Below, piece by piece: positions 3,267-56,884 of a stretch of DNA of 64,000 bases (position 1 is its first letter; each line of letters starts with the position of its first letter). Made by a program: the position numbers and the translations under genes. The DNA comes from a phage: assembly GCA_014686985.1 (NCBI GenBank), contig GCA_014686985.1_3627.1. One strand, 5' to 3'. The notes under the pieces are model-generated. The model searched no databases. It saw nothing but the letters and a program-made list of their open reading frames with translations, and was not told the origin of the DNA.

Positions 3267-3355
3267 ATAAAGTGTTGCAATAATCTAAAAACCTGCTATA
3301 TTAAAACTCAAGGGGCGAGATGACTTGCCCCACACAAAACAAAGAGGAAAACATC

Positions 3356-4570: not shown

Positions 4571-4600
4571 TTGCAATCCGGTCCGGAATATGGATAATAA
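4571..4600 (+). promoter_or_regulatory. sigma70-like promoter (TTGCAA / ATAATA class)
   Basis: TTGCAA 4571-4576, 17-nt spacer ending AATATGG, ATAATA 4594-4599; same architecture at 5730-5758. Confidence 0.5.
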
Positions 4601-4654
4601 CAATCAACGGGGAAACATCCCCACCAACACAAAAACCAGAAAGGAGAAACAAAA

Positions 4655-4855
4655 ATGAGCAACAATATCCGCGTTATTAACTTCAAAAAAGAAGAAAAAA
4701 TTGCCGTGCTGATTGACGGTCAAGAAATCTTCAAGGGCGACTATGAAGATCATCAAACGGCGATTAGTATCACTCGCGTGATTGGTTACCATAATTTTTA
4801 CCCCCAAGGCGCTGAGGCGGCGGTTAAACGAATCAAAGAGATTGTAGGCCTGTAA
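4655..4855 (+). CDS. hypothetical protein (66 aa)
   Basis: ORF track; RBS AAAGGAGAAAC before ATG. Confidence 0.6.
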   Translation: MSNNIRVINFKKEEKIAVLIDGQEIFKGDYEDHQTAISITRVIGYHNFYPQGAEAAVKRIKEIVGL

Positions 4856-4856
4856 A

Positions 4857-4903
4857 ATTTATTTTTAGATGGCCTTGACTCTAGGGCCATCAATAAAGTA
4901 AAT
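4857..4903 (+). promoter_or_regulatory. conserved 45-bp intergenic element, copy 3
   Basis: AATTTATTTTTAGATGGCCTTGACTCTAGGGCCATCAATAAAGTAAAT. Confidence 0.55.
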
Positions 4904-4946
4904 TTAAACCCTGTTAAAATAATCAGTGCAAAAAGGAGTAATGATC

Positions 4947-5246
4947 ATGTTTATCCAGGCTAATAATCTTTATTTCTTTGATGGTCAGATCGTAGACGGC
5001 GTGGAGGTGGAAATCACCGGGTGCCCTGGCGGTCAGGTTATGACTTTTCGGAATAATGCCTTTGATGATTCTCATATCGTTATGAGAATGGAAGTTAGTA
5101 AGCTGGATGACAAGAAAACACTTATCGACTATTCTGTGAAAGATCATCCAGACTACCACATGATCTATGGTGATTTGTGCGTTGTTGACCGTGACAAGGT
5201 GGGCGGCATTGTGATCGCTATTGTGAACGATGTTTTCTCAAACTAA
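4947..5246 (+). CDS. hypothetical protein (99 aa)
   Basis: ATG 4947, 8 nt after AAAGGAG; alternative ATG 4941 / GTG 4926 less well spaced. Confidence 0.55.
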   Translation: MFIQANNLYFFDGQIVDGVEVEITGCPGGQVMTFRNNAFDDSHIVMRMEVSKLDDKKTLIDYSVKDHPDYHMIYGDLCVVDRDKVGGIVIAIVNDVFSN

Positions 5247-5263
5247 TTTCAGCAGGTGATTTT

Positions 5264-5614
5264 ATGAAAGTAAAACTATATTACCTTAATGAGCTTAACC
5301 CCCTTGCCCAGGTCCGCGCCATAGCTAATACCTTGATTTGTGAGAAATCTGTATATTGTGTTGAGCTTAACGCCATGCGTGAACGTCTCAAAGGTGGTTA
5401 CTTTGACATCCATACTGCAATCAACGGCCTGAATATGGAATTTATACGCTTACGTAACAGCCGCTGGAATCTGGCAAGAATGGAACAAGATCCGGCCTAC
5501 CTTCGTAAGCTGGTTATTGAAAATCATCTGATGTTTAATGCCGAGGGTGATTATTACCATTTTCACCGCAGACGCTGGTACCGTGGCGGCAATACAGGCA
5601 AGAATGCAAAATAA
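5264..5614 (+). CDS. hypothetical protein (116 aa)
   Basis: ORF track; followed by GC hairpins 5615-5690. Confidence 0.55.
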   Translation: MKVKLYYLNELNPLAQVRAIANTLICEKSVYCVELNAMRERLKGGYFDIHTAINGLNMEFIRLRNSRWNLARMEQDPAYLRKLVIENHLMFNAEGDYYHFHRRRWYRGGNTGKNAK

Positions 5615-5729
5615 GGCCCCTAGCAGGGCCTGCAGCAATATAATCACATAAAGGCTATGCGGTTGCATGGCCTTTATTATTTTGGCGTTACAACGGCATA
5701 CGGGGCGCTTAAAAATTTTTAAAAAGTAC

Positions 5730-5758
5730 TTGCATCATTCCCAACAATATGGATAATA
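5730..5758 (+). promoter_or_regulatory. sigma70-like promoter (TTGCAT / ATAATA class)
   Basis: TTGCAT 5730-5735, 17-nt spacer ending AATATGG, ATAATA 5753-5758; downstream hairpin GGGGGGCGGCCCCCC. Confidence 0.5.
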
Positions 5759-5814
5759 GGACGCATCAGGGGGGCGGCCCCCAATCATTAACCGGATAGA
5801 TAGGAGTTAAAACC

Positions 5815-6099
5815 ATGGCTATTGTTACCGTTGGCGATGTAGTGGAAATGGAAGCAAAATACTTAAAAGCGGGTATGCATATCCTTCGGAACGATCAAGA
5901 AATGTTGCTGACTATGGTTGACTATAATCCTGGGCAGGATTATCCTAGCGTTGACTACTTTTTCCAGTATGTTGATGAAGAATTAAAAGAGGATGAGGCT
6001 TATTGCGGTGAGTTCTGCAACTTCTTTTGCCCGGATGAAGTTGTAAAAGTTATCTATCAACCTGGCGTACCTTTCCCGCTACACGCTATCAATAAATAA
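5815..6099 (+). CDS. hypothetical protein (94 aa)
   Basis: ORF track; RBS TAGGAG before ATG. Confidence 0.6.
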   Translation: MAIVTVGDVVEMEAKYLKAGMHILRNDQEMLLTMVDYNPGQDYPSVDYFFQYVDEELKEDEAYCGEFCNFFCPDEVVKVIYQPGVPFPLHAINK

Positions 6100-6155
6100 A
6101 CCTGGCGGGGCCGAAAAGGCCCCCCAATTATGAAAATAAAGAGAGGCAAATCATC

Positions 6156-6386
6156 ATGATGGAACAAATTAAACGCGCCGAGGCTATTAATGGCAACGTG
6201 ATCTATTTTGTCAGCAATAACGAAAAAGGCGTACCATATGCGGCGGTAATAGTACAGCCTGACGGCGATTATTGGTTTACTGTGTACGGCGCTTACTCTT
6301 TTGGGCGTCCAGTGCATGATAAAATTTTGAAAGTAGCGAACCCTACCGGGAAGAATATCACAGCAGAAAAATTTTTTGAAAAATAG
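6156..6386 (+). CDS. hypothetical protein (76 aa)
   Basis: ORF track; RBS AGAGAGG; upstream hairpin GGCGGGGCCGAAAAGGCCCCCC. Confidence 0.55.
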   Translation: MMEQIKRAEAINGNVIYFVSNNEKGVPYAAVIVQPDGDYWFTVYGAYSFGRPVHDKILKVANPTGKNITAEKFFEK

Positions 6387-6414
6387 TTGACATGGCCTTA
6401 TAAGACTGTAGAAT
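6387..6414 (+). promoter_or_regulatory. sigma70-like promoter
   Basis: TTGACA 6387-6392, 16-nt spacer, TAGAAT 6409-6414. Confidence 0.45.
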
Positions 6415-6466
6415 ATAAATCAAAGGGGGCAACAAGCCCCACCAACCACAAAGAGGATAAAAAATC

Positions 6467-6646
6467 ATGGCTATTATTGCAAAGACTGAGATCGTAGGCT
6501 TAGATTCTATTCTCCTCGCATATGAGGAAGCTATAGAAATGTATGTGGTTTCCTATGGTGAATATATCCGTGAATATAAATCTATTGATCTGGCTTTTGA
6601 ATGTTATATTCGCCAGGTTAATAAAGCGTACGATGATTATCGTTAA
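6467..6646 (+). CDS. hypothetical protein (59 aa)
   Basis: ATG 6467 after AAAGAGGATAAAAAATC, stop TAA 6644-6646 traced by hand; below ORF-track cutoff. Confidence 0.5.
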   Translation: MAIIAKTEIVGLDSILLAYEEAIEMYVVSYGEYIREYKSIDLAFECYIRQVNKAYDDYR

Positions 6647-6736
6647 AATAGCTTGACAACAAACAACCATCTAACAAAGCATAATACATAAGGCGGTGGA
6701 ATGGTCCGCCACCTGGAACAAGAAGAGGAAAACAAG

Positions 6737-6838
6737 ATGAAACAGAAATTAATTGATGCGGTGATCCTGGTTATTGCCCTGGGTATTGGCCTGATTGCAA
6801 CCATGTCTAATATGATCTTGTCTTCCAACGGTATCGGG
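6737..6838 (+). CDS. small transmembrane peptide (33 aa)
   Basis: ATG 6737 after AAGAAGAGGAAAAC; hydrophobic AVILVIALGIGLIATM; stop overlaps the RBS of the next gene. Confidence 0.45.
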
Positions 6839-6850
6839 TGAGGTTGGCAA

Positions 6851-7066
6851 ATGATCACTAACAAAACAGGCAAAACAGAATTTTTACGCAACTTACAGAT
6901 CGGCAAGCCTGAGATCTGGTATTGCACTAAAACACCACGTGACGAAATGAAAGACTTCACCGCCACGCTGCAACGGGTAAAGATATCCATCACGCAGAAA
7001 AAGGCCTTATTAGTGGTGGAAGGTGAGATCCCCCAAACCGTTGTTATAGTTGAGCGTACAGCATAG
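6851..7066 (+). CDS. hypothetical protein (71 aa)
   Basis: ORF track; RBS GGTGAGG. Confidence 0.55.
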   Translation: MITNKTGKTEFLRNLQIGKPEIWYCTKTPRDEMKDFTATLQRVKISITQKKALLVVEGEIPQTVVIVERTA

Positions 7067-7157
7067 TTTAATTTATACCGATACCCGAAAATTAACCAAC
7101 AAAGCATAAACAGGCGGTTACCGCCGCCTTAAACGTAGCAGAAAGAGGATAGACACA

Positions 7158-7442
7158 ATGAAAAAGATGATCGCAGTGGTTGCCCTGGTTGTTGGACTTA
7201 ATGCGCCTGTAATGGCTAAAGAGCTGGCAAAAGAGGTTAATCTAACGGATATTCATGCCGTCAATCAAATCGGGGTTACTTATCGCTTATGCCTTGCCGC
7301 TAAAACTTTCCAGGACGGCACGACAGAGTACTACGGATTCGAGGGTATCCGGTGCGGTGAGCTTGCTCGCGACCTTAAGGAAGATCCAGATCTGGAAGAT
7401 CTACCCATCACCGTAAACGGTAAAGCTTACGTAAACCGTTAA
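7158..7442 (+). CDS. hypothetical secreted/periplasmic protein (94 aa)
   Basis: N-terminal signal-peptide-like MKKMIAVVALVVGLNAPVMA; RBS AAAGAGGATAG. Confidence 0.6.
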   Translation: MKKMIAVVALVVGLNAPVMAKELAKEVNLTDIHAVNQIGVTYRLCLAAKTFQDGTTEYYGFEGIRCGELARDLKEDPDLEDLPITVNGKAYVNR

Positions 7443-7444
7443 CC

Positions 7445-7579
7445 ATGAGAAAGATAACCATCACCTTGGGGATTGTGGTAGCAATACTGGCGCTCTTTCC
7501 CCTTATGGTTAGGTATGTGCTGATCAGTGTTGTCCTGATAGTCAGTGATCTATTGGAAACGGTTGGCACCTTGTTTTAA
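7445..7579 (+). CDS. small membrane protein (44 aa)
   Basis: ATG 7445, 2 nt after upstream stop; two hydrophobic stretches; stop TAA 7577-7579. Confidence 0.4.
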   Translation: MRKITITLGIVVAILALFPLMVRYVLISVVLIVSDLLETVGTLF

Positions 7580-7592
7580 AGAGCGATAAAAA

Positions 7593-7784
7593 ATGAATAT
7601 CGAACAAGTTAGAAAGGTATTAGCGGTACTGCGTTATCATAATCATAGAAAGGTCATAGACGATCCTGATTATGTTGATTCAAGCCTGGAAGAGGATACA
7701 CTACAAGCCATAAGTAACATGCAAGAATTGCTAAAGCGCATGACAGAGAAAAACCGACCGGACTACATAGGCGAAAAAATATAA
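7593..7784 (+). CDS. hypothetical protein (63 aa)
   Basis: ORF track. Confidence 0.5.
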   Translation: MNIEQVRKVLAVLRYHNHRKVIDDPDYVDSSLEEDTLQAISNMQELLKRMTEKNRPDYIGEKI

Positions 7785-7801
7785 TATTTATAAACTACAA
7801 A

Positions 7802-7830
7802 ACAGGGCTTGCAATGGTCCTGTTTTTTGT
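7802..7830 (+). terminator. rho-independent terminator
   Basis: stem ACAGG/CCTGT with loop, followed by TTTTTTGTT. Confidence 0.55.
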
Positions 7831-7913
7831 TATACTTATTCCACGGCAGGCACCTGGCGACGGGGGGGAGACAATCACCGGGCCTGCCTGTCATATAAGA
7901 ACTATAAAAACCG

Positions 7914-8737: not shown

Positions 8738-9157
8738 ATGAACATTAAATCTGATAATCCGGCATATAGCTTTGATAACGCTTTTTGTCACGGTCCGGCG
8801 GCGAAAGGATTCGAAATCGATGGTAAACTAGTTATTGTTAATGTTGACGGGGAAGAGGTTGCAGTATATCCGGTGGCAGACGTTAAAAGCCGTCTACAAT
8901 GCCGCATGGATGTTACCGCCTATCAGCTTGATCCGGTCCGGGTAGTTGCCCTGGTCCTGGAAGAAGAAATTAAAGCAATGCACCACAGCAACAAGTTTAT
9001 TGGTGACGCTCAAGATAATATGCAGGTATGCCGCTATAAAGTTAATGAAGTGCTTAAAGAGTACGGCTATAAGGATTTAATGATCAAGCGTGATGAAAAA
9101 TTCCGCTACCGTAACGACCTGGCAAATCGGATTTTTGAAATATACGAATCATTATAA
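8738..9157 (+). CDS. hypothetical protein (139 aa)
   Basis: ORF track; RBS TAAGAGG. Confidence 0.6.
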   Translation: MNIKSDNPAYSFDNAFCHGPAAKGFEIDGKLVIVNVDGEEVAVYPVADVKSRLQCRMDVTAYQLDPVRVVALVLEEEIKAMHHSNKFIGDAQDNMQVCRYKVNEVLKEYGYKDLMIKRDEKFRYRNDLANRIFEIYESL

Positions 9158-9177
9158 TTTCTTAACTGAATTATCAA

Positions 9178-9202
9178 GGGGCTTAAAGGCCCCTTTCTTT
9201 TT
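9178..9202 (+). terminator. rho-independent terminator at the end of the plus-strand early block
   Basis: hairpin GGGGCTTAAAGGCCCC followed by TTTCTTTTT. Confidence 0.6.
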
Positions 9203-11760
9203 GTCTGCTCTTCTCCTACCATAAACGGCCCTACCCGGCAAGTGGAATAATTGACTAGCCATTAATCCCACACACTGTACAAATATACATATAAAATAAC
9301 TATTGCATAATCTTTCACTGTGTGGTAGCAGGGCCATTTTTACCCGTTTTCTCTCCCAAAAGTGCACGTAATGCCGCTATTGCACAAATTTTAACCTGAT
9401 GCACATCTCCAATATCTTGTCAACAACTAAAAATCTTTATAAGTCATACACTTACACAACATAGAAAGCGTGTCCTACGCGAAAAATCGAGTATAACTAT
9501 GGCCGCCAGATCTCAGAATTCACGTACGCACGCCATTCTATAGCCTGCAAAGTATTTATTCCAACCACAGAATAACGGAATAGTCAATACCTGCATAAAA
9601 TAATTATTCGTGTAAACTGCATAACATAAATCAGCTCAGGTGTCAACATTTTTCGTAAACAGTCCGAAATTATCACGATGAGTTATCATAAACAGAGAAA
9701 TCTTTAGTCGTCTAATGTTTACTGTACATTACTATACTGACTGGAATCATTAGATGACTAAGAGAAAGATAAGAAATAATTAATAATGTGATTATTTTAC
9801 CTGTAACAATAAGGCAACTATGCAAACGAATGGCATGGCGCGACGGAGTCGCGACATAATATAAAAGCAGTAACCATCACCCCCGTGATAGTTTGTCTGC
9901 AAACTATTAATCAGATCATAGTTGCCTTGTATTTAGTTAATCATGACATAACAAGCAAGGCAACTATAGATCTTCTAATAGTTGCCCTGCTTTTATATTA
10001 TGTCATAGAAACACCCGAAGGGGTGACCAAAGGCCACCTGGCATAGCCAGCGAAAGATTATTAACTTGCTAATAGTTATCATGCAAACGAATGGCATGGC
10101 TTATCATTTCCATGTAAATAGTTAGCTATGTAAACTATTGGTCATGTAAACCATTAAGCATGTAAACAGTAAGAGCGTGAACAGTAAAGGGAGTGAATAG
10201 TAATAGCGTGAATAGTGACAGCGTAAACAGTCAGGCATGTCAATTATGTCATATTGTGTCACCATTATGTCTAAAGTGTCATATTGTGTCAGACAAGTTT
10301 TTCTCCTCTTTGTCAAGTGCTGCATGAAAAATTTACAAGCTGGTATGGTAGCATTTTTGCGGCCCTGTTTACATTCAGTGATGTATGTATAATCCTTGTT
10401 GTGTGGGCGTTTAGACGTCTAGACGGTTGGAAGTCCACAGGTCAATATCTAATCTATCGGCTGCTAACTATATCCCACACAAATAGTAAGAAATATGATT
10501 GTTATATGCGTAAACAGTAACTCATGTTATCAATCCCTGTATGTATCGCCAGTGGTGCGCATAATGGGTATTATGTTAAATTGCCCGTAATGATAATGGT
10601 TCTCACAATGATAGGTATTCTCATTCCCCCACACAAAATAGATTGCAAATGTTGTGCCACTATGTGAACGGCCTCACCTATTAATTTGCCTCACTGCCTC
10701 GATATTTGAGAATTGTTATAAGAATGAGAATGATTCCCATTTCGTCCGCCTGGCAGCACTCCTGTAGGTCCTGCAAGGACTCTAGCTGAAAGCTAGACCC
10801 TTCGGGCCTCCCTGTAGGTCAGGTCAAAATCGTGGTAGAATTGGGCCTGTTCAGATATTTCTGGCTGACTCTTCAGGTCTGTGTGGGAAAAGCCAACCTC
10901 TCCGGCGGCGGGGAGGGGGTCAATTAAAAAAAAAATTACGTGGTGTATGAAGCGCTCTTCAGGTAAGGCATATATTATGAGATGAAACCCTCTTCAGGTA
11001 ATGATATTTGTGGGTGTGATATTTGCTGGAAAGCCAGATATGACGGGACTCCCGGCGGGGCAGGGGTAGTACAGACAGGGAAAATATGAGAATGTAGTTG
11101 GGGAAATTGATCAGACAGGTAGAGTATGGAATATGTTACAAGTATGTTAAATATGGAGGTTGAATATCTGTAGGGTTTGTGTGTAAAATCAAAGACTTAA
11201 GGGGTGTTGTGGTATTTTCTATAAATAATTCAAGTTTAATAGGCAATATTTGTCTCTATCCGCTTTGTGTGGTAAACAGATTCAGATTAGATTGGTTTAC
11301 AAGTGTATACATAATATACAAATTAAAGATACAAGAAACCCCCCTCCCCCTTCGGCTACCATTCACCTTTTCCTCTGACTGGTACTTAAACACTTATTCA
11401 GACTCTTCAGGTTATCACCCATATATCATATGGCAGTGACTGGTGTCCTCCGGCCCCTCTTTCGTCACCCGTCCGCTTCGCCATGCTAATGCCATAGCCA
11501 ATGGTTCGGTTGTTCACCCTGTTCACTCAGGTGTATCTCCATACCCCTTCAAACCGAAGAGAACAGAAAACCCGAATTACTCGGTAAAAGAAAAGAGAAG
11601 AACTTAATTTTATCAGGATAGGCAAGAATGTCAAGGCATGACTGCTCACTAAACAAGCAAACAGTCATGTGTGGGAGGTAAGTGATTGTGGTGGTAGGAA
11701 ATTTAGTTGAAAGATGTGTTATAGGTGCTTCCAGCACTTTAGCCTGGCAGCTAATTGTGT
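9203..11760. repeat. non-coding repeat-dense region (several families of short direct and inverted repeats)
   Basis: no convincing ORF on either strand; recurring motifs AGGCAACTAT / ATAGTTGCC, CAAACGAATGGCATGGC (x2), TGTCATATTGTGTCA (x2), CATGTAAA and GTGAATAGT series, CTCTTCAGGT (x4), CCTGTAGGTC (x2). Confidence 0.6.
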
Positions 11761-11761
11761 G

Positions 11762-12043
11762 TCAGTCCAGCGGTTCATCCTCTACTTCACTGAAATCAAT
11801 GTTCATGGTCTCTTCCCAACCATCGATCTCAGCACAAGAGTAGAGATCTTTAGGACTTACTCCCAAAGCCTCAGCAACAGAGTCTATATTTAACACCTCT
11901 GGCAGGTATGATTCATCGAATTCAAGGTAAATCAGGCCACGAGTGTTGTCAGCTCCACCAAATATTTCTATCTTCATGAAATCTCCTCTGGAAATGAGAA
12001 TGTGAACAGGGTTTATATGTTCCAATGCACTGGAATTATGCAC
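11762..12043 (-). CDS. hypothetical acidic protein (93 aa)
   Basis: ORF track; last gene of the minus-strand block. Confidence 0.5.
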   Translation of the reverse strand: MHNSSALEHINPVHILISRGDFMKIEIFGGADNTRGLIYLEFDESYLPEVLNIDSVAEALGVSPKDLYSCAEIDGWEETMNIDFSEVEDEPLD

Positions 12044-52537: not shown

Positions 52538-52612
52538 GCCCTGTTAGCTTAGTGGATAAAGCAGCGGCCTTCTAAGCCGTTGACACTGGTTCGAGTCCAG
52601 TACGGGGTGCCA
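52538..52612 (+). tRNA. tRNA-Arg(UCU): tRNA-Arg (anticodon UCU)
   Basis: hand-folded cloverleaf: acceptor GCCCTGT/ACGGGGT, D-arm GCTT...AAGC, anticodon loop CTTCTAA, T-arm ACTGG-TTCGAGT-CCAGT, CCA encoded. Confidence 0.8.
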
Positions 52613-52616
52613 AATT

Positions 52617-52703
52617 GGGGAGTTATCCCGTAGAGGTAGCGGTGTAGACTGTAAATCTATTGTCATTGCGACTCGGGTGGTTCGACTCCACCACTCCCCA
52701 CCA
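52617..52703 (+). tRNA. tRNA-Tyr(GUA): tRNA-Tyr (anticodon GUA), class II
   Basis: acceptor GGGGAGT/ACTCCCC, anticodon loop CTGTAAA, long variable arm, T-arm GGTGG-TTCGACT-CCACC, CCA encoded. Confidence 0.75.
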
Positions 52704-52817
52704 AATTTATATTTTTAGATGCATAAATAATACAGATAATGGCATTGATATTTATCGTCGTTTATACTAGTCACTAACTGCTCGAAAATCAGTGTCATTA
52801 TCAGTATAATTTATAAA

Positions 52818-52908
52818 GGAGGGTAGGGAGCAATGGTGCTCAAGCGGTCTTGAAAACCGTCCCGTTGAGGATGACTCGATGATGGTTCGATTCCATTACT
52901 CTCCGCCA
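52818..52908 (+). tRNA. tRNA-Ser(UGA): tRNA-Ser (anticodon UGA), class II
   Basis: acceptor GGAGGGT/ACTCTCC, anticodon stem GCGGT/ACCGT with loop CTTGAAA, long variable arm, T-loop TTCGATT, CCA encoded. Confidence 0.7.
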
Positions 52909-53006
52909 CATTGTTGACCTTGTAATTAAGCGAAAGCCGGAAGCAGAACCGGATTATCAAATGTTACAGTCGTCATCGCCGACTAGCAACATGGTCAACA
53001 TACTGA

Positions 53007-53105
53007 GCTAGGTAAGCCCTTTGGCAAGGGCGAGGATTTTTAATCCTGAAAATAGACGAGGTAGTCGTTGAATACATAGGTGGTTCGATTCCATCGCCTA
53101 GCACC
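53007..53105 (+). tRNA. atypical tRNA-like element (99 nt; anticodon arm irregular, about 30-nt variable region)
   Basis: intact acceptor GCTAGGT/GCCTAGC, D-arm GCCC...GGGC and T-arm GGTGG-TTCGATT-CCATC; AGGA-TTTTTAA-TCCT arm would give anticodon UUU (Lys) but with a mismatch and an over-long variable region. Confidence 0.45.
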
Positions 53106-53110
53106 TTTTT

Positions 53111-53186
53111 GCTGATGTAGCACAATCGGTAGTGCAATTGATTTGTAATCAATAGGTTGTAGGTTCAAGTCCTGCCATCAGCACCA
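53111..53186 (+). tRNA. tRNA-Thr(UGU): tRNA-Thr (anticodon UGU)
   Basis: acceptor GCTGATG/CATCAGC, D-arm GCAC...GTGC, anticodon stem ATTGA/TCAAT with loop TTTGTAA, T-loop TTCAAGT, CCA encoded. Confidence 0.8.
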
Positions 53187-53187
53187 A

Positions 53188-53263
53188 GGCCCTGTAGCTG
53201 GAAGGTTCAAGCAAGCGACTCATAATCGCCAGACGGTGGTTCAATTCCACCCAGGGCCACCAA
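53188..53263 (+). tRNA. tRNA-Met/Ile2(CAU): tRNA with anticodon CAU (Met or lysidine-modified Ile2)
   Basis: acceptor GGCCCTG/CAGGGCC, anticodon loop CTCATAA, T-arm GGTGG-TTCAATT-CCACC, CCA encoded. Confidence 0.75.
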
Positions 53264-53273
53264 ATAGTAAATA

Positions 53274-53350
53274 CTCCGCGTAGCTCAGCTTGGTAGAGCG
53301 CCTGATTTGGGATCAGGAGGTCGAGTGTTCGAATCACTCCGTGGAGACCA
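53274..53350 (+). tRNA. tRNA-Pro(UGG): tRNA-Pro (anticodon UGG)
   Basis: acceptor CTCCGCG/CGTGGAG, D-arm GCTC...GAGC, anticodon stem CCTGA/TCAGG with loop TTTGGGA, T-arm GAGTG-TTCGAAT-CACTC, CCA encoded. Confidence 0.8.
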
Positions 53351-53771: not shown

Positions 53772-54170
53772 ATGATTTCAGGTTTAACATGGCTGAGTAG
53801 GTATAGAGGGATCATAAAAGGTTTAGTTTTTGCAGCGGCTATAGGTACAGCTTATCTTGGGGCCGTGTATTGGTTTAACTCTAAGCTTAATGAAGCCTAC
53901 CAAGAAGGTGTGTTAGCAACAGAGTTGAAGTGGGAACGGATCCTTGATCAGCAACAAAAGCAGGCCGACAAAATTAAAATGGGCCACGCAGAGGAGGTTA
54001 AAAACCTTGAAAAATCCCTTTCTGATCTACAGGATAAATTAAATATAGCTGAGAGGGCAGGTAGAGAAAAGCAGATTATCTACCTCCAATCACCTGAAGG
54101 TAAGAAGTCAACACTTCCTGATCAGCTTATAGATATTTATAATGAGAGTATCAATCAGGAGGATCGATGA
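53772..54170 (+). CDS. i-spanin-like protein (Rz-type: N-terminal TM helix plus coiled-coil periplasmic domain)
   Basis: GLVFAAAIGTAYLGAVYWF TM segment then charged helical region; stop overlaps start of a lipoprotein gene. Confidence 0.55.
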   Translation: MISGLTWLSRYRGIIKGLVFAAAIGTAYLGAVYWFNSKLNEAYQEGVLATELKWERILDQQQKQADKIKMGHAEEVKNLEKSLSDLQDKLNIAERAGREKQIIYLQSPEGKKSTLPDQLIDIYNESINQEDR

Positions 54171-54454
54171 GAGTTGCCACACTGTTTATTGCGTGCTTGT
54201 TATTATGTGGGTGTGCAACCAGCGTTGAGAGAGAATACAATATTGACCCTCCGGATGTAGGAAGGTTGATTGTTAAACCCCCAGAAGGTGCCATGAAACC
54301 ACCTGCTAAAGCTATGCCTTTGAAGAAAGGTGCGCCAGATGCAGTGAATTCTGGCATTATGAGGGATAATAATCTGTCTTGTAGCAATGATAGAGCTAAA
54401 TTGATCATTTTGCAAGACTATATTAGAACACTGTTTCCAAAGGAGAGAGGTTAA
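54167..54454 (+). CDS. o-spanin-like outer-membrane lipoprotein (Rz1-type)
   Basis: signal peptide with lipobox LLLCGCA, Pro-rich mature region, 95 aa. Confidence 0.55.
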   Translation: MRVATLFIACLLLCGCATSVEREYNIDPPDVGRLIVKPPEGAMKPPAKAMPLKKGAPDAVNSGIMRDNNLSCSNDRAKLIILQDYIRTLFPKERG

Positions 54455-54879
54455 TGTCTAAGATTTACGGACCGTGTTCTGAAAAGCAGAAGATGATCCT
54501 CGAAAACGATGCAGATATCTTGGTAATCGGCGGTGCAGCAGGGTCTGGCAAGTCGTTCCTCTTGCAGTTGATGCCACTTAAAATTATTGATGACCCCCAC
54601 AGCTCTGTGGTTATGTTCCGAAGAACAACCCCACAGTTGGAAGGTGAGGGTGGACTATGGCCTAAAGCAGTAGCTATTTATAGTGATCTGCCTGAAAACA
54701 TTAAGCCAAAGTTCAGAGAGAAGGATCATAAGTTCATTTTTCCACGGTTTGATCCGAACACTGGTAAGTGGGATAGAAGCAAAAAGGGAGCTGTTGTAAA
54801 ATACTGCCATATGGAGTATGTACAAGATAAGCTTAACCATCAGGGGCTTGAGTACACCATGGTTTGCTTCGACGAGGGT
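54454..54879 (+). CDS. terL: terminase large subunit, exon 1 (ATPase N-terminus)
   Basis: Walker A GGAAGSGKS, Walker B MVCFDE; reading frame ends at ...FDEG immediately before the proposed 5' splice site. Confidence 0.7.
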
Positions 54880-55762
54880 TAATTTGTAGCTCTCGTAAAA
54901 CCTCCCTAATTGCGGGGAAATCTTTATTATTGACACCACCAACCTGTTATGGTAACATAATAGAGGCTTCGAAGAGAGATCGAAGGTATGGTAACAGTGT
55001 GTTAATTTAGATAATCCGCAGCGAAGCATCCGAGAGGATGAACGTTCAACGACTAGTCGAAAGACGTAGAATCAAGCGATTCGAAACGGGAGGGTGAATG
55101 TGTAATACTAAAAAATGTATGGATTGCCAAAGAGTTCTGCCCATTGATGATTTCTTTTTATCATCTAAGAGCAAGGATGGATACTCAGGTACATGCAAGG
55201 AATGCTATATGTACTACAGGAAGGGTGGATCTCGTAAAAACAAAAATATGGTTAAGAGAGATGACGCAGCATTGTTTATTCAAGACTTGCTGAAGAAAGG
55301 TGAACTTTTTGAATGCAAATCTTGTCATGAAAGTATGCTCGCTGATAGTTTTTACACAAAACGTGACTATGGTAAAGTATATCTGGTTACGAACAGGTGT
55401 AAGATGTGTGAAAAGTTTTATCAGATTGAGAAGAAATTTCACATAACAAAAGATGAATACTATCGTCTACTCTCAGATCAAGATCATAAGTGTGCCATTT
55501 GTAGAATATCTCTTAATGAGTATAGGACGCAAGGGTACAGAGATTTCTTTTGTGTTGATCATGACCATAAAACTGGTGCTGTAAGAGGGTTGCTTTGTGA
55601 TAAATGCAACAGAGCTTTAGGTTTCTTCCAAGAAGATGAGGAAACTATTCTTAGAGCGGCAGAGTATTTACACATTCATAAGATATAGTCTGGTCTGCAT
55701 GGAGACATGCAGCTGCCTGAAAATGGCGGGGCAAGACTAGCGACCTTGCCCGAACATAAACG
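54880..55762 (+). mobile_element. candidate group I intron interrupting terL (carries an HNH homing endonuclease ORF)
   Basis: exon end CGAGGGU can pair with intron GCUCUCG (54889-54895) giving a P1 helix with U-G at the splice site; intron ends in G at 55762; 3' part contains AGACUA and the 5' part contains the complementary UAGUC (P7-like). Confidence 0.6.
55098..55688 (+). CDS. HNH homing endonuclease (Endo VII-type fold)
   Basis: CAICRISL...FCVDHDHKTGAVRGLLCDKCNRALG; RBS GGGAGGG; located inside the terL intron. Confidence 0.75.
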   Translation: MCNTKKCMDCQRVLPIDDFFLSSKSKDGYSGTCKECYMYYRKGGSRKNKNMVKRDDAALFIQDLLKKGELFECKSCHESMLADSFYTKRDYGKVYLVTNRCKMCEKFYQIEKKFHITKDEYYRLLSDQDHKCAICRISLNEYRTQGYRDFFCVDHDHKTGAVRGLLCDKCNRALGFFQEDEETILRAAEYLHIHKI

Positions 55763-56884
55763 ACACAATTCGAATGGGAGCAGATAGACTATCTGATGTC
55801 TCGTCTGCGATCTCAGTCAAAGTATCCATCAAGAATGGTTATCAGCTGTAACCCCGATTCAGAACACATGCTTGCCAAACTGGTTAGATGGTGGTTGGAC
55901 GATGAAGGGTATCCAGATCCGGAGAAATGCGGTAAGAAAAGATATTTTATCCGACGCGACGGTGAATTTATATGGGGAGACTCTAAAGAAGAGTTGATAG
56001 AGAAATACACCACGGTTAACGGACTGGGTGTGGAGATCAAGCCAAGACCGTTGTCATTCTCGTTTATAGGCGCAACAATATTCGATAATCCTGTCTGCTT
56101 AAGAGACAACCCAGAATACCTTGCTTTCCTTGAAGGTCTGCCGGAACTGGAAAAAGCTCAGCTTCTTCATGGTAACTGGTTTGCAAAGCCTGAGGGTGCA
56201 AACTATTTTCAAAGATCTTTCCTTCGTGATGCCGATAGAGTACCTCTTGGATCAGTATCTTGCAGGGCATGGGATAAGGCAGGAACCGAGAGAACTTCCG
56301 GTAATAAATTTCCTGACTTTACCGCCAGTATTAAGGTAAGTAAAGATAGCGACGGCTTTTATTACCTGTCCGGTGATTATTGTCCTGAGAACGTGGATGA
56401 AGGGAGGTATTCCACAGGTCTGGAAGGCAAGTTCTGTAAAAAGGCTGGTGAACGAGATGTGATCATCAGGAAACAGGCGCAGTTTGATGGTGATGATTGC
56501 ATAATCGTCTTCTCTGTGGACCCAGGGCAGGCAGGTAAGAGTGAGTTCTTAACCTCCTCCAGATCCTTGCTTGCCGAAGGGTTCAGGGTTGAAGAAGACC
56601 CAATGCCTTCCAACAAGTCTAAACTGACAAGGTTCTCACCTTTTGCCAATCTTGCCCAACAAGGAATGGTGAGGATTGTAAAATCCAGTTTCCATCCTGA
56701 TACTCTGGAAGCATTTCTGACTGAACTTGAAAAATTCAACGGGGAAAGATCAACATTTAACAGAAAAGACGACTGGGCCGACTGCGTAGCTTCTGCGATT
56801 AATTTCCTAGAGAAAGAGGAGGTAGCACTTCCTTGTGTGATTCCATCAATCTCATCACCTTCTATGTTCAAGCGTTTTATCTAA
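55763..56884 (+). CDS. terL: terminase large subunit, exon 2 (coupling motif and nuclease domain)
   Basis: in-frame continuation TQFEWEQIDYLMSRLRSQSK...MVISCNP aligns with T4 gp17 region following Walker B; LLHGNW later. Confidence 0.65.
   Translation, partial: TQFEWEQIDYLMSRLRSQSKYPSRMVISCNPDSEHMLAKLVRWWLDDEGYPDPEKCGKKRYFIRRDGEFIWGDSKEELIEKYTTVNGLGVEIKPRPLSFSFIGATIFDNPVCLRDNPEYLAFLEGLPELEKAQLLHGNWFAKPEGANYFQRSFLRDADRVPLGSVSCRAWDKAGTERTSGNKFPDFTASIKVSKDSDGFYYLSGDYCPENVDEGRYSTGLEGKFCKKAGERDVIIRKQAQFDGDDCIIVFSVDPGQAGKSEFLTSSRSLLAEGFRVEEDPMPSNKSKLTRFSPFANLAQQGMVRIVKSSFHPDTLEAFLTELEKFNGERSTFNRKDDWADCVASAINFLEKEEVALPCVIPSISSPSMFKRFI

Follow-up and report, generated by a model that had tools for sequence, protein, structure and literature searches.

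Between positions 9203 and 11760 of a 64,000-nucleotide stretch of phage DNA (contig GCA_014686985.1_3627.1, referred to below as the window) lie some 2.5 kb in which no gene is recognised, short repeats are crowded together and two blocks of genes converge. What such a length of gene-free DNA does for the phage is the question raised by this locus. In an initial annotation it had been proposed to act in cis as DNA, whether as a packaging site, as the physical genome termini or the boundary of a terminal repeat, as a second replication origin, or as a partition-like centromere. The comparisons reported here indicate that it is probably the terminal region of a Vequintavirus genome, seen as the concatemer junction in a circularised assembly, with ends of the T7 type and with accessory signals.

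Identification of the terminal repeat by homology

The region was 88-97% identical to 122 phage records, nearly all of them from Escherichia phages of the genus Vequintavirus (rV5-like myophages). By sequence similarity the source phage is a Vequintavirus, an rV5-like E. coli myophage. The counterpart of the region in rV5 spans positions 104015-106572 and separates genes 163 and 164. When rV5 was described in 2013 (Kropinski et al., PMC3606486), this locus was drawn as a grey "non-coding" box without explanation, and the genome was described as circularly permuted. Nineteen GenBank records titled 'Campylobacter phage' (MG0656xx, UNVERIFIED) were also 93-97% identical to the region; on this similarity their host label is probably wrong.

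Virion DNA of phage vB_EcoM_Gotham has been reported to carry 459-bp terminal repeats, with one specific start sequence in all virions (PMC7471380). In the Gotham record the 459-bp repeat is annotated and is identical at both record ends. Alignment of the Gotham junction to the window placed this repeat at 10292-10750, exactly 459 bp, with the same boundaries (...TGTCATATTGTGTCA^GACAAGTTTTT and ...CCATTTCGTCCGCC^TGGCAGCAC, where the caret here and below marks the cut). This block forms the exact start or end of at least ten GenBank records. The records of EdH4 and ECP2309 carry it at both ends, and it stands exactly at the start or the end of those of ECP2303, Pr121LW, bov10K2, bov11CS3, bov22_2, bov25_3 and YN3 (for the bov phages version 2 of the record, which starts on the block, was used). 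In the window the block is single-copy with both unique flanks attached, as it is in most records.

A second mapped repeat lies at the homologous site. The Klebsiella phage KPP-1, a Mydovirus of the same subfamily, has a direct terminal repeat (DTR) of 514 bp, located by two-fold coverage and PhageTerm (PMC9862379). It occupies the homologous place: gene blocks converge there too, leaving about 1.8 kb without genes, and the repeat shares homologous boundaries with the window block. Anchor sequences inside the block were colinear with KPP-1 and with phage 4MG. Window positions 10292-10750 are thus shown by homology to be a DTR of about 459 bp, which would be present at both ends of the virion DNA.

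Among the functions proposed initially, comparison with relatives therefore supports that of termini, terminal-repeat boundary or packaging signal: the Gotham repeat maps exactly to the block, many records are cut there, and the words at the cut sites are conserved in three genera, including at the mapped KPP-1 repeat. A terminal repeat is already on record for the genus; earlier reports gave only its length or coordinates. The papers on Certrevirus, Septuagintavirus and LL12 were silent on genome ends.

Inverted words at the two repeat boundaries

Both block boundaries carry the same 8-nt word on opposite strands (Table 1). The left word was invariant in 18 of 18 Vequintavirus genomes, as was the last unit of the array that precedes the cut (RTGTCA^GACAAG), and the right word was kept in 17 of the 18. 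In KPP-1, too, the words at the boundaries are on opposite strands (TGCTA^GAC and TGCTA^AAC), and one of these sites, GGTGCTA^GACGGAC, is exactly where the KP12 record is cut. Homologues of the left cut were TGCTA^AAC in KPP-1, PVP-SE1 and 4MG and TGTTA^AAC in Mydo; those of the right cut were GTCCGTC^TAGCA in KPP-1, Mydo and PVP-SE1 and ^TAACA in 4MG. In three genera (Vequintavirus, Mydovirus and Seunavirus) the word TGYYA^RRC marks the two boundaries, once on each strand.

A scan for TGYYA^RRC on the + strand followed by its complement returned one pair per phage at the homologous place, with a spacing of 459 bp in the window, 514 bp in KPP-1, 514 bp in Mydo, 515 bp in PVP-SE1 and 516 bp in 4MG. 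Over the whole 64-kb window two such pairs were found, against 0.7 expected by chance. DTRs of 514, 515 and 516 bp, so far unreported, are predicted on this basis for Mydo, PVP-SE1 and 4MG respectively, each within a gene-free stretch of about 2 kb between converging gene blocks.

On each strand, a nick 3' of TGYYA would coincide with the 5' end of the repeat, so that the 3'-OH could be extended across it. The polarity of the word would leave 5' overhangs that a polymerase can fill, which fits staggered nicking and fill-in of the T7 type. According to this scheme the terminase would nick each strand at the 5' end of the repeat, both 3'-OH ends would be extended by strand-displacement synthesis, and the repeat would be duplicated, so that each of two neighbouring genomes could be released from the concatemer with the repeat complete. 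The conserved non-coding DNA on either side may, more tentatively, supply accessory signals.

Coding content and composition

The longest open reading frame (ORF) inside 9203-11760 has 86 amino acids. A PHROG scan of ten ORFs internal to the region gave no family match; both flanking genes do match PHROGs, of unknown function. Substitutions among 16 relatives showed no codon-phase bias in the region (p 0.35-0.93), while the adjacent gene at 11762-12043 gave p = 1.7e-5. The + strand gene block stops at 9157 and the − strand block at 11762. The initial description of a non-coding region at which transcription blocks converge was borne out on both counts.

The GC content over 9001-10000 was 0.37, and the sign of the GC skew flips in the region. 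Searches of the region for host-factor sites found no Chi site, no DnaA box and a single site resembling that of integration host factor (IHF). GATC is scarce in 9203-11760: its frequency in the remainder of the window would predict 14.8 sites, and 4 are present. Taken over all 64 kb, the window is rich in this word (359 sites). An origin of the region in the E. coli chromosome was considered and rejected, there being no chromosomal similarity and the sole matches being 52 bp on small plasmids. These 52 bp (10005-10057, with the hairpin CACCCGAAGGGGTG) were 84-87% identical to sequence on E. coli plasmids of about 13 kb. The Gotham-group phages have unrelated sequence at this position.

Repeat families

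Every repeat family listed in the initial annotation was found where it had been placed, strongly enriched over the remainder of the window. The word GGCAACTAT occurs at 9813(+), 9918(−), 9959(+) and 9978(−), four copies against one in the other 61 kb. Tandem Repeats Finder reported a 16-bp unit in 2.5 copies (10128-10167), a 15-bp unit in 4.4 copies (10165-10231) and a 10-bp unit, TGTCATATTG, in 5.5 copies (10238-10291). CTCTTCAGGT occurs four times, on the + strand every time (10869, 10955, 10990 and 11403), as a 10-mer unique to these places. CCTGTAGGTC has copies at 10761 and 10811. The G-rich element CGGCGGGG(A/C)AGGGGT lies at 10906 and 11053, and a third G-rich copy is on the − strand at about 11339-11362.

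Further elements came to light in addition to these. Eight copies of TGTGTGG(G), of both orientations, lie in the region where 0.9 would be expected (9268, 9319, 10400, 10475, 10629, 10880, 11266 and 11668), and further copies are at 3330 and 7966; TGAGAAT occurs four times, against 0.2 expected. An 18-nt perfect inverted repeat and a near-consensus − strand promoter were likewise new. In rV5, the late-promoter motif TGTGGTAAAATA and the CACA found at start sites are similar to TGTGTGG. Examined as a transcription-start or late-promoter word, TGTGTGG had no consistent -10 element upstream. Elsewhere in the window the complementary word CCCACACAA comes after intergenic hairpins, just upstream of ribosome-binding sites.

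Table 1. Features in and beside the region 9203-11760 (window coordinates; ^ marks the cut)
Feature	Position	Strand	Remarks
Rho-independent terminator closing the + strand gene block	9176..9195	+	8-bp stem, then T-run; = t164 in rV5 Table S4
Distal left flank, AT-rich, non-coding	9203..9800		~91% conserved; TGTGTGG at 9268(−), 9319(+)
20-nt direct repeat ATGCAAACGAATGGCATGGC, copy 1	9820..9839	+	perfect 20-mer; the two copies flank the inverted-repeat element
Multi-branch inverted-repeat element	9853..10004	−	18-nt perfect arms 9853-9870 / 9987-10004
Variable segment	10005..10080		hairpin 10012-10025, terminator-like on − strand; replaced in Gotham-group phages
20-nt direct repeat ATGCAAACGAATGGCATGGC, copy 2	10081..10100	+	as copy 1
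15/16-bp unit array, core GTRAAC(A)GT	10111..10233	+	copy number and spacers hypervariable among relatives
TGTCA array, 10-bp period x5.5	10238..10291	+	ends exactly at left cut
Left cut word TGTCA^GAC	10287..10294	+	cut between 10291 and 10292; putative + strand 5' virion end at 10292
Block homologous to DTR	10292..10750		459 bp; one copy, as in concatemer junction or collapsed assembly
Within the block: TGTGTGGG			three copies
Within the block: palindrome TAGACGTCTA	10412..10421
Within the block: cross-genus 14-mer GTATTATGTTAAAT	10568..10581
Within the block: TGAGAAT cluster	10617..10731
Right cut word TGCCA^GGC (+ strand GCC^TGGCA)	10748..10755	−	cut between 10751 and 10750; putative − strand 5' end at 10750
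Right patch, indel hot spot	10751..10825		mean pairwise identity 0.35
Two conserved modules CTCTTCAGGT..TGTGGG..GGAAAGCCA..CGGCGGGG(A/C)AGGGG	10867..10922, 10988..11067	+	plus lone CTCTTCAGGT at 10955
Ultra-conserved block	11340..11660	−	320 bp; holds fourth CTCTTCAGGT (11403) and C-rich run
Small hairpin with T-rich tail	11572..11584	−
Near-consensus sigma-70 promoter TTGACA-16-TGaTAAAAT	11634->11607	−	11/12 hexamer matches and extended -10

Hypervariable patches beside the cuts

Conservation was profiled as mean pairwise identity among 16 genomes. It was 94.1% in the adjacent gene (11762-12043), 93.6% in the terminal repeat and about 91% in most of the flanks, and fell to 31-44% at 10100-10279, left of the repeat, and to 23% at 10760-10819, right of it. 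Outside both boundaries identity drops exactly at the cut, and the repeat itself is free of indels.

The left patch holds two arrays (Table 1). The final unit of the TGTCA array is the left cut word itself, and on the − strand the units resemble overlapping sigma-70 promoters (10292->10264 and 10282->10253). Unit number and spacers in the arrays vary between phages that are otherwise about 90% identical. In the right patch the CCTGTAGGTC pair flanks an insert of about 50 bp, which is present, absent or replaced across relatives. The TGTCA and GTRAAC arrays at the left cut could, by analogy with P1 pac and lambda cosB, be candidate binding arrays for the small terminase subunit.

Inverted-repeat element

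About 290 bp left of the terminal repeat lies a multi-branch inverted-repeat (IR) element whose inner hairpins are built from the GGCAACTAT repeats, together with a short hairpin at 9872-9893. Its fold z-score was -9.35, and that of the KPP-1 counterpart -9.9. Counterparts stand at the same relative place in KPP-1, Mydo, PVP-SE1, 4MG and an IMG/VR relative (L006), so that three genera are covered; the distance to the left cut is 232-403 bp in KPP-1, Mydo, PVP-SE1 and 4MG. This relative came from a search of IMG/VR, which returned three loci only, one of them unrelated in the region and one, L006, divergent (IMGVR_UViG_3300045988_159287, positions 4600-7900). The layout is kept in L006, with 17-nt perfect arms at 5131-5147 and 5230-5246. 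Of about 121 Vequintavirus records, 118 have the element.

The arms are 100% complementary in six lineages. Relative to KPP-1, with the alignment anchored on the shared GACA, the arms differ by 6 changes in the window, 2 in PVP-SE1 and 2 in 4MG, all of them compensated. That every arm change is mirrored on the partner points to selection, or concerted evolution, for pairing. Folding of the − strand was better than that of the + strand by 6.7-13.3 kcal/mol in all five phages tested; this predicted advantage hints at a single-stranded role, as RNA or as single-stranded DNA. A − strand hairpin in single-stranded form might serve junction processing or priming, in the manner of the T7 hairpin intermediate, a suggestion made with low confidence. 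Flip/flop inversion of the element was considered and rejected: the inner hairpins of KPP-1 follow another order than those of the window, and 18 of 18 Vequintavirus copies have one orientation.

Right flank

Words of the right flank recur beyond the genus. CTCTTCAGG and GGGGAGGGG keep a colinear order in PVP-SE1 and 4MG, and CTCTTCAGGT, the G-rich CGGCGGGG(A/C)AGGGG and TTTGTGTGGT recur colinearly in Seunavirus. This recurrence indicates that the right-flank words are old and probably functional.

Transcription from the promoter at 11634->11607 would run toward the terminal repeat. Both hexamers were invariant in 18 genomes, and at locus L007 the spacer is rewritten and 2 nt longer. Hexamers that stay fixed while the spacer is rewritten are the signature of a real promoter. 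It may, tentatively, drive transcription toward and across the junction, like phiOR in T7.

Directly downstream of this promoter, on the − strand, is the block 11340-11660. Among 16 Vequintavirus genomes it showed 98.6% identity with 7% variable columns, compared with 94.1% and 26% for the adjacent gene. The block had no Rfam and no PHROG match, and no homologue outside the genus was found apart from the word GACnCTTCAGGT..ACCCAT. A structured RNA was rejected for the block, which folds no better than shuffled sequence on either strand (z -1.0 and -0.2). The small hairpin at 11572-11584 is a candidate terminator of the − strand gene block or attenuator of the transcript from the promoter. Rfam 15 gave no match when the whole window was searched at gathering thresholds, nor when 9100-11900 was searched at E <= 5, and transcriptomics for this genus was not found in the literature.

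Comparison with known systems

The Gotham system (459 bp; PMC7471380) agrees with the window in block, length, boundaries and position between converging gene blocks, and the KPP-1 repeat (514 bp; PMC9862379) has boundary words homologous to those of the window. Neither report contains the inverted cut word, the hypervariable patches, the IR element or the ultra-conserved block. The "non-coding" box of rV5 (PMC3606486) is the identical locus, unexplained there, in a genome treated as circularly permuted.

Models of the staggered-nick, strand-displacement type for T7 have been summarised (PMC4281155). Like the window, the T7/T3 junction has a short exact repeat present once per junction, a geometry that fits staggered nicks and fill-in, a palindromic element near the repeat and a promoter pointing across the junction. 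The window phage differs in being a myovirus with a T4-type split large terminase subunit (TerL; Terminase_6N/6C), in having a putative host sigma-70 promoter in place of one for a phage polymerase, and in the length of its repeat (459 bp, against 160 bp in T7); there is no sequence similarity between the two. The T7/T3 junction also has pac sites at the repeat, a hairpin intermediate and transcription from phiOR that runs across it; features of the T7 junction were reportedly described in part by Chung and Hinkle in 1990.

The cut of P1 pac is flanked by hexamer repeats, and lambda cosB has R sites. The phased array of short units in the window (TGTCA every 10 bp), which ends at the cut, is similar to these. 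It differs in that it belongs to exact terminal repeats and not to cohesive or headful ends, and in that the array is hypervariable and specific to the genus.

A more ambitious proposal is that the Vequintavirinae make exact repeats by means of a dedicated, conserved and so far undescribed cis apparatus, consisting of inverted nick sites (TGYYA^RRC), a nearby multi-branch hairpin with concertedly evolving arms and an outward-pointing host-type promoter that drives transcription across the junction. This is speculative and rather unlikely to hold. The associated idea that the hairpin would act as − strand single-stranded DNA or RNA, for example in fold-back or priming during duplication of the repeat, is given similarly little weight. 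If true, the apparatus would be a myovirus solution analogous to the T7 system but independent of it.

Weighing of the explanations

Several observations count against the interpretation of the region as a genome terminus with T7-type ends and accessory signals. The ends of the window phage were placed by homology only, and nicking, protein binding and transcription are predicted from the DNA sequence. Some of the records that start on the block may have been rotated to match earlier ones, in which case not all are independent. The cut word was derived post hoc from four boundaries; at the right cut rV5 has TGCCT, and L006 has only a loose variant of the word, with putative cuts about 665 bp apart. 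Mydovirus and Seunavirus lack the TGTCA and GTRAAC arrays, which could equally be a mutational by-product of nicking and repair beside the junction. Phage FV3 (L011) is without exactly the 261 bp between the 20-nt repeats (window 9840-10100), and so without the whole IR element, and reads straight from repeat copy 1 into the sequence after copy 2. Either the segment was lost naturally through recombination between the repeats, or it was dropped in assembly at a strong hairpin; barring an artefact in the FV3 record, the IR element is apparently conserved yet dispensable. Lastly, published labels point to another mode of packaging: rV5 was called circularly permuted, and PhageTerm labelled the bov phages 'circular permutated' and BpE1AUH headful. 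Taken at face value, these labels describe a headful, circularly permuted genome in which the region is only a spacer or a pac site between converging operons and the 459-bp 'repeat' of some records an assembly or annotation convention. This is very unlikely, however. Gotham and KPP-1 have sharp repeats, seen from coverage and read ends; two independently mapped repeats share homologous boundaries and the same inverted word; and the bov records start on the block in version 2. A typical pac site lies in or next to the small terminase gene, whereas the large terminase gene is here 44 kb from the region; the family of the split TerL (Terminase_6N/6C) does not discriminate between packaging modes. 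PhageTerm is blind to ends in transposase libraries, and the published "permuted" labels most likely reflect library type or assumption.

Two of the remaining alternatives are compatible with termini. The left flank could be a replication origin, with the arrays as iterons, an AT-rich unwinding region and the IR as a cruciform. The tandem arrays, the low GC content and the strong inverted repeat are in keeping with this, as is the change of sign in GC skew, which was also seen by the rV5 authors in their origin search. The skew, however, changes where the direction of transcription switches, FV3 lacks the IR element, and the arrays differ in number and sequence between phages 90% identical to each other and do not occur in other genera with the rest of the layout intact. 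An origin here is unlikely, and the second origin proposed initially found no support, since DnaA boxes are lacking (one IHF-like site was seen), the arrays are hypervariable and specific to the genus, and no initiator-like gene is adjacent; of the properties expected, AT-richness alone was found. A better case, though still a doubtful one, can be made for genes of non-coding RNAs, in the form of a transcript from the promoter at 11634->11607 over the ultra-conserved block and of a − strand RNA from the IR. The promoter hexamers are kept despite the rewritten spacer, with a highly identical block downstream; the IR folds better on the − strand in five of five phages, with conserved G-U positions; and the − strand has hairpins resembling terminators at 10025-10012 and 9893-9872. 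Against such genes stand the lack of any Rfam match even at E <= 5, the folding of block 11340-11660 like shuffled sequence and its lack of conservation beyond the genus, the literature without transcript data for the genus, and the arms of the IR, which are always perfect and without G-U pairs and so look like a constraint at the level of DNA. Part of the region may still act through transcripts and not purely as DNA. A plasmid-like partition centromere, with the arrays bound by a ParB-type protein, is scarcely credible: short tandem and inverted repeats are present but nothing else, and no plasmid stage is reported for this virulent myophage. This option from the initial annotation is left unsupported by the flanking ORFs, which match PHROGs of unknown function and have no ParA/ParB signature, and by the hypervariable repeats, and the position at the genome end accounts fully for the region.

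Significance

The inverted cut word shared by three genera and the predicted repeats in PVP-SE1, 4MG and Mydo appear to be undescribed so far, as do the hypervariable patches next to the junction, the compensated IR element and the promoter-linked ultra-conserved block. Many rV5-like phages intended for therapy or biocontrol are still annotated as circularly permuted or headful and opened at arbitrary points, and spurious ORFs are sometimes annotated inside the region. With 10292-10750 as the terminal repeat, a natural start point would be available. The risk of generalised transduction is expected to be lower for phages that package exact ends than for headful ones. Generation of exact terminal repeats is less well understood than cos or headful packaging, according to a 2026 review. 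The cut word, the compensated IR and the junction-directed promoter are concrete targets for mutations that address the mechanism, and the genus can already be edited, as was done for EdH4 using Cas13a (PMC9712115).

Terminase and transfer RNA genes elsewhere in the window

The TerL gene is split. The N-terminal part of Terminase_6N is encoded at 54454-54882, and the rest of Terminase_6N together with Terminase_6C at 55796-56884. The ORF that splits it, at 55098-55688, encodes a homing endonuclease of the Endonuclease_7 family, an arrangement in agreement with the 'introns in terminase' described for rV5. Immediately upstream of the split gene is an Rz-like spanin (53772-54170). Within a cluster of transfer RNA (tRNA) genes at 52538-53350, ARAGORN identified a 99-nt 'tRNA-???' at 53007-53105 with a four-base anticodon (atcc), which the Rfam tRNA model misses.

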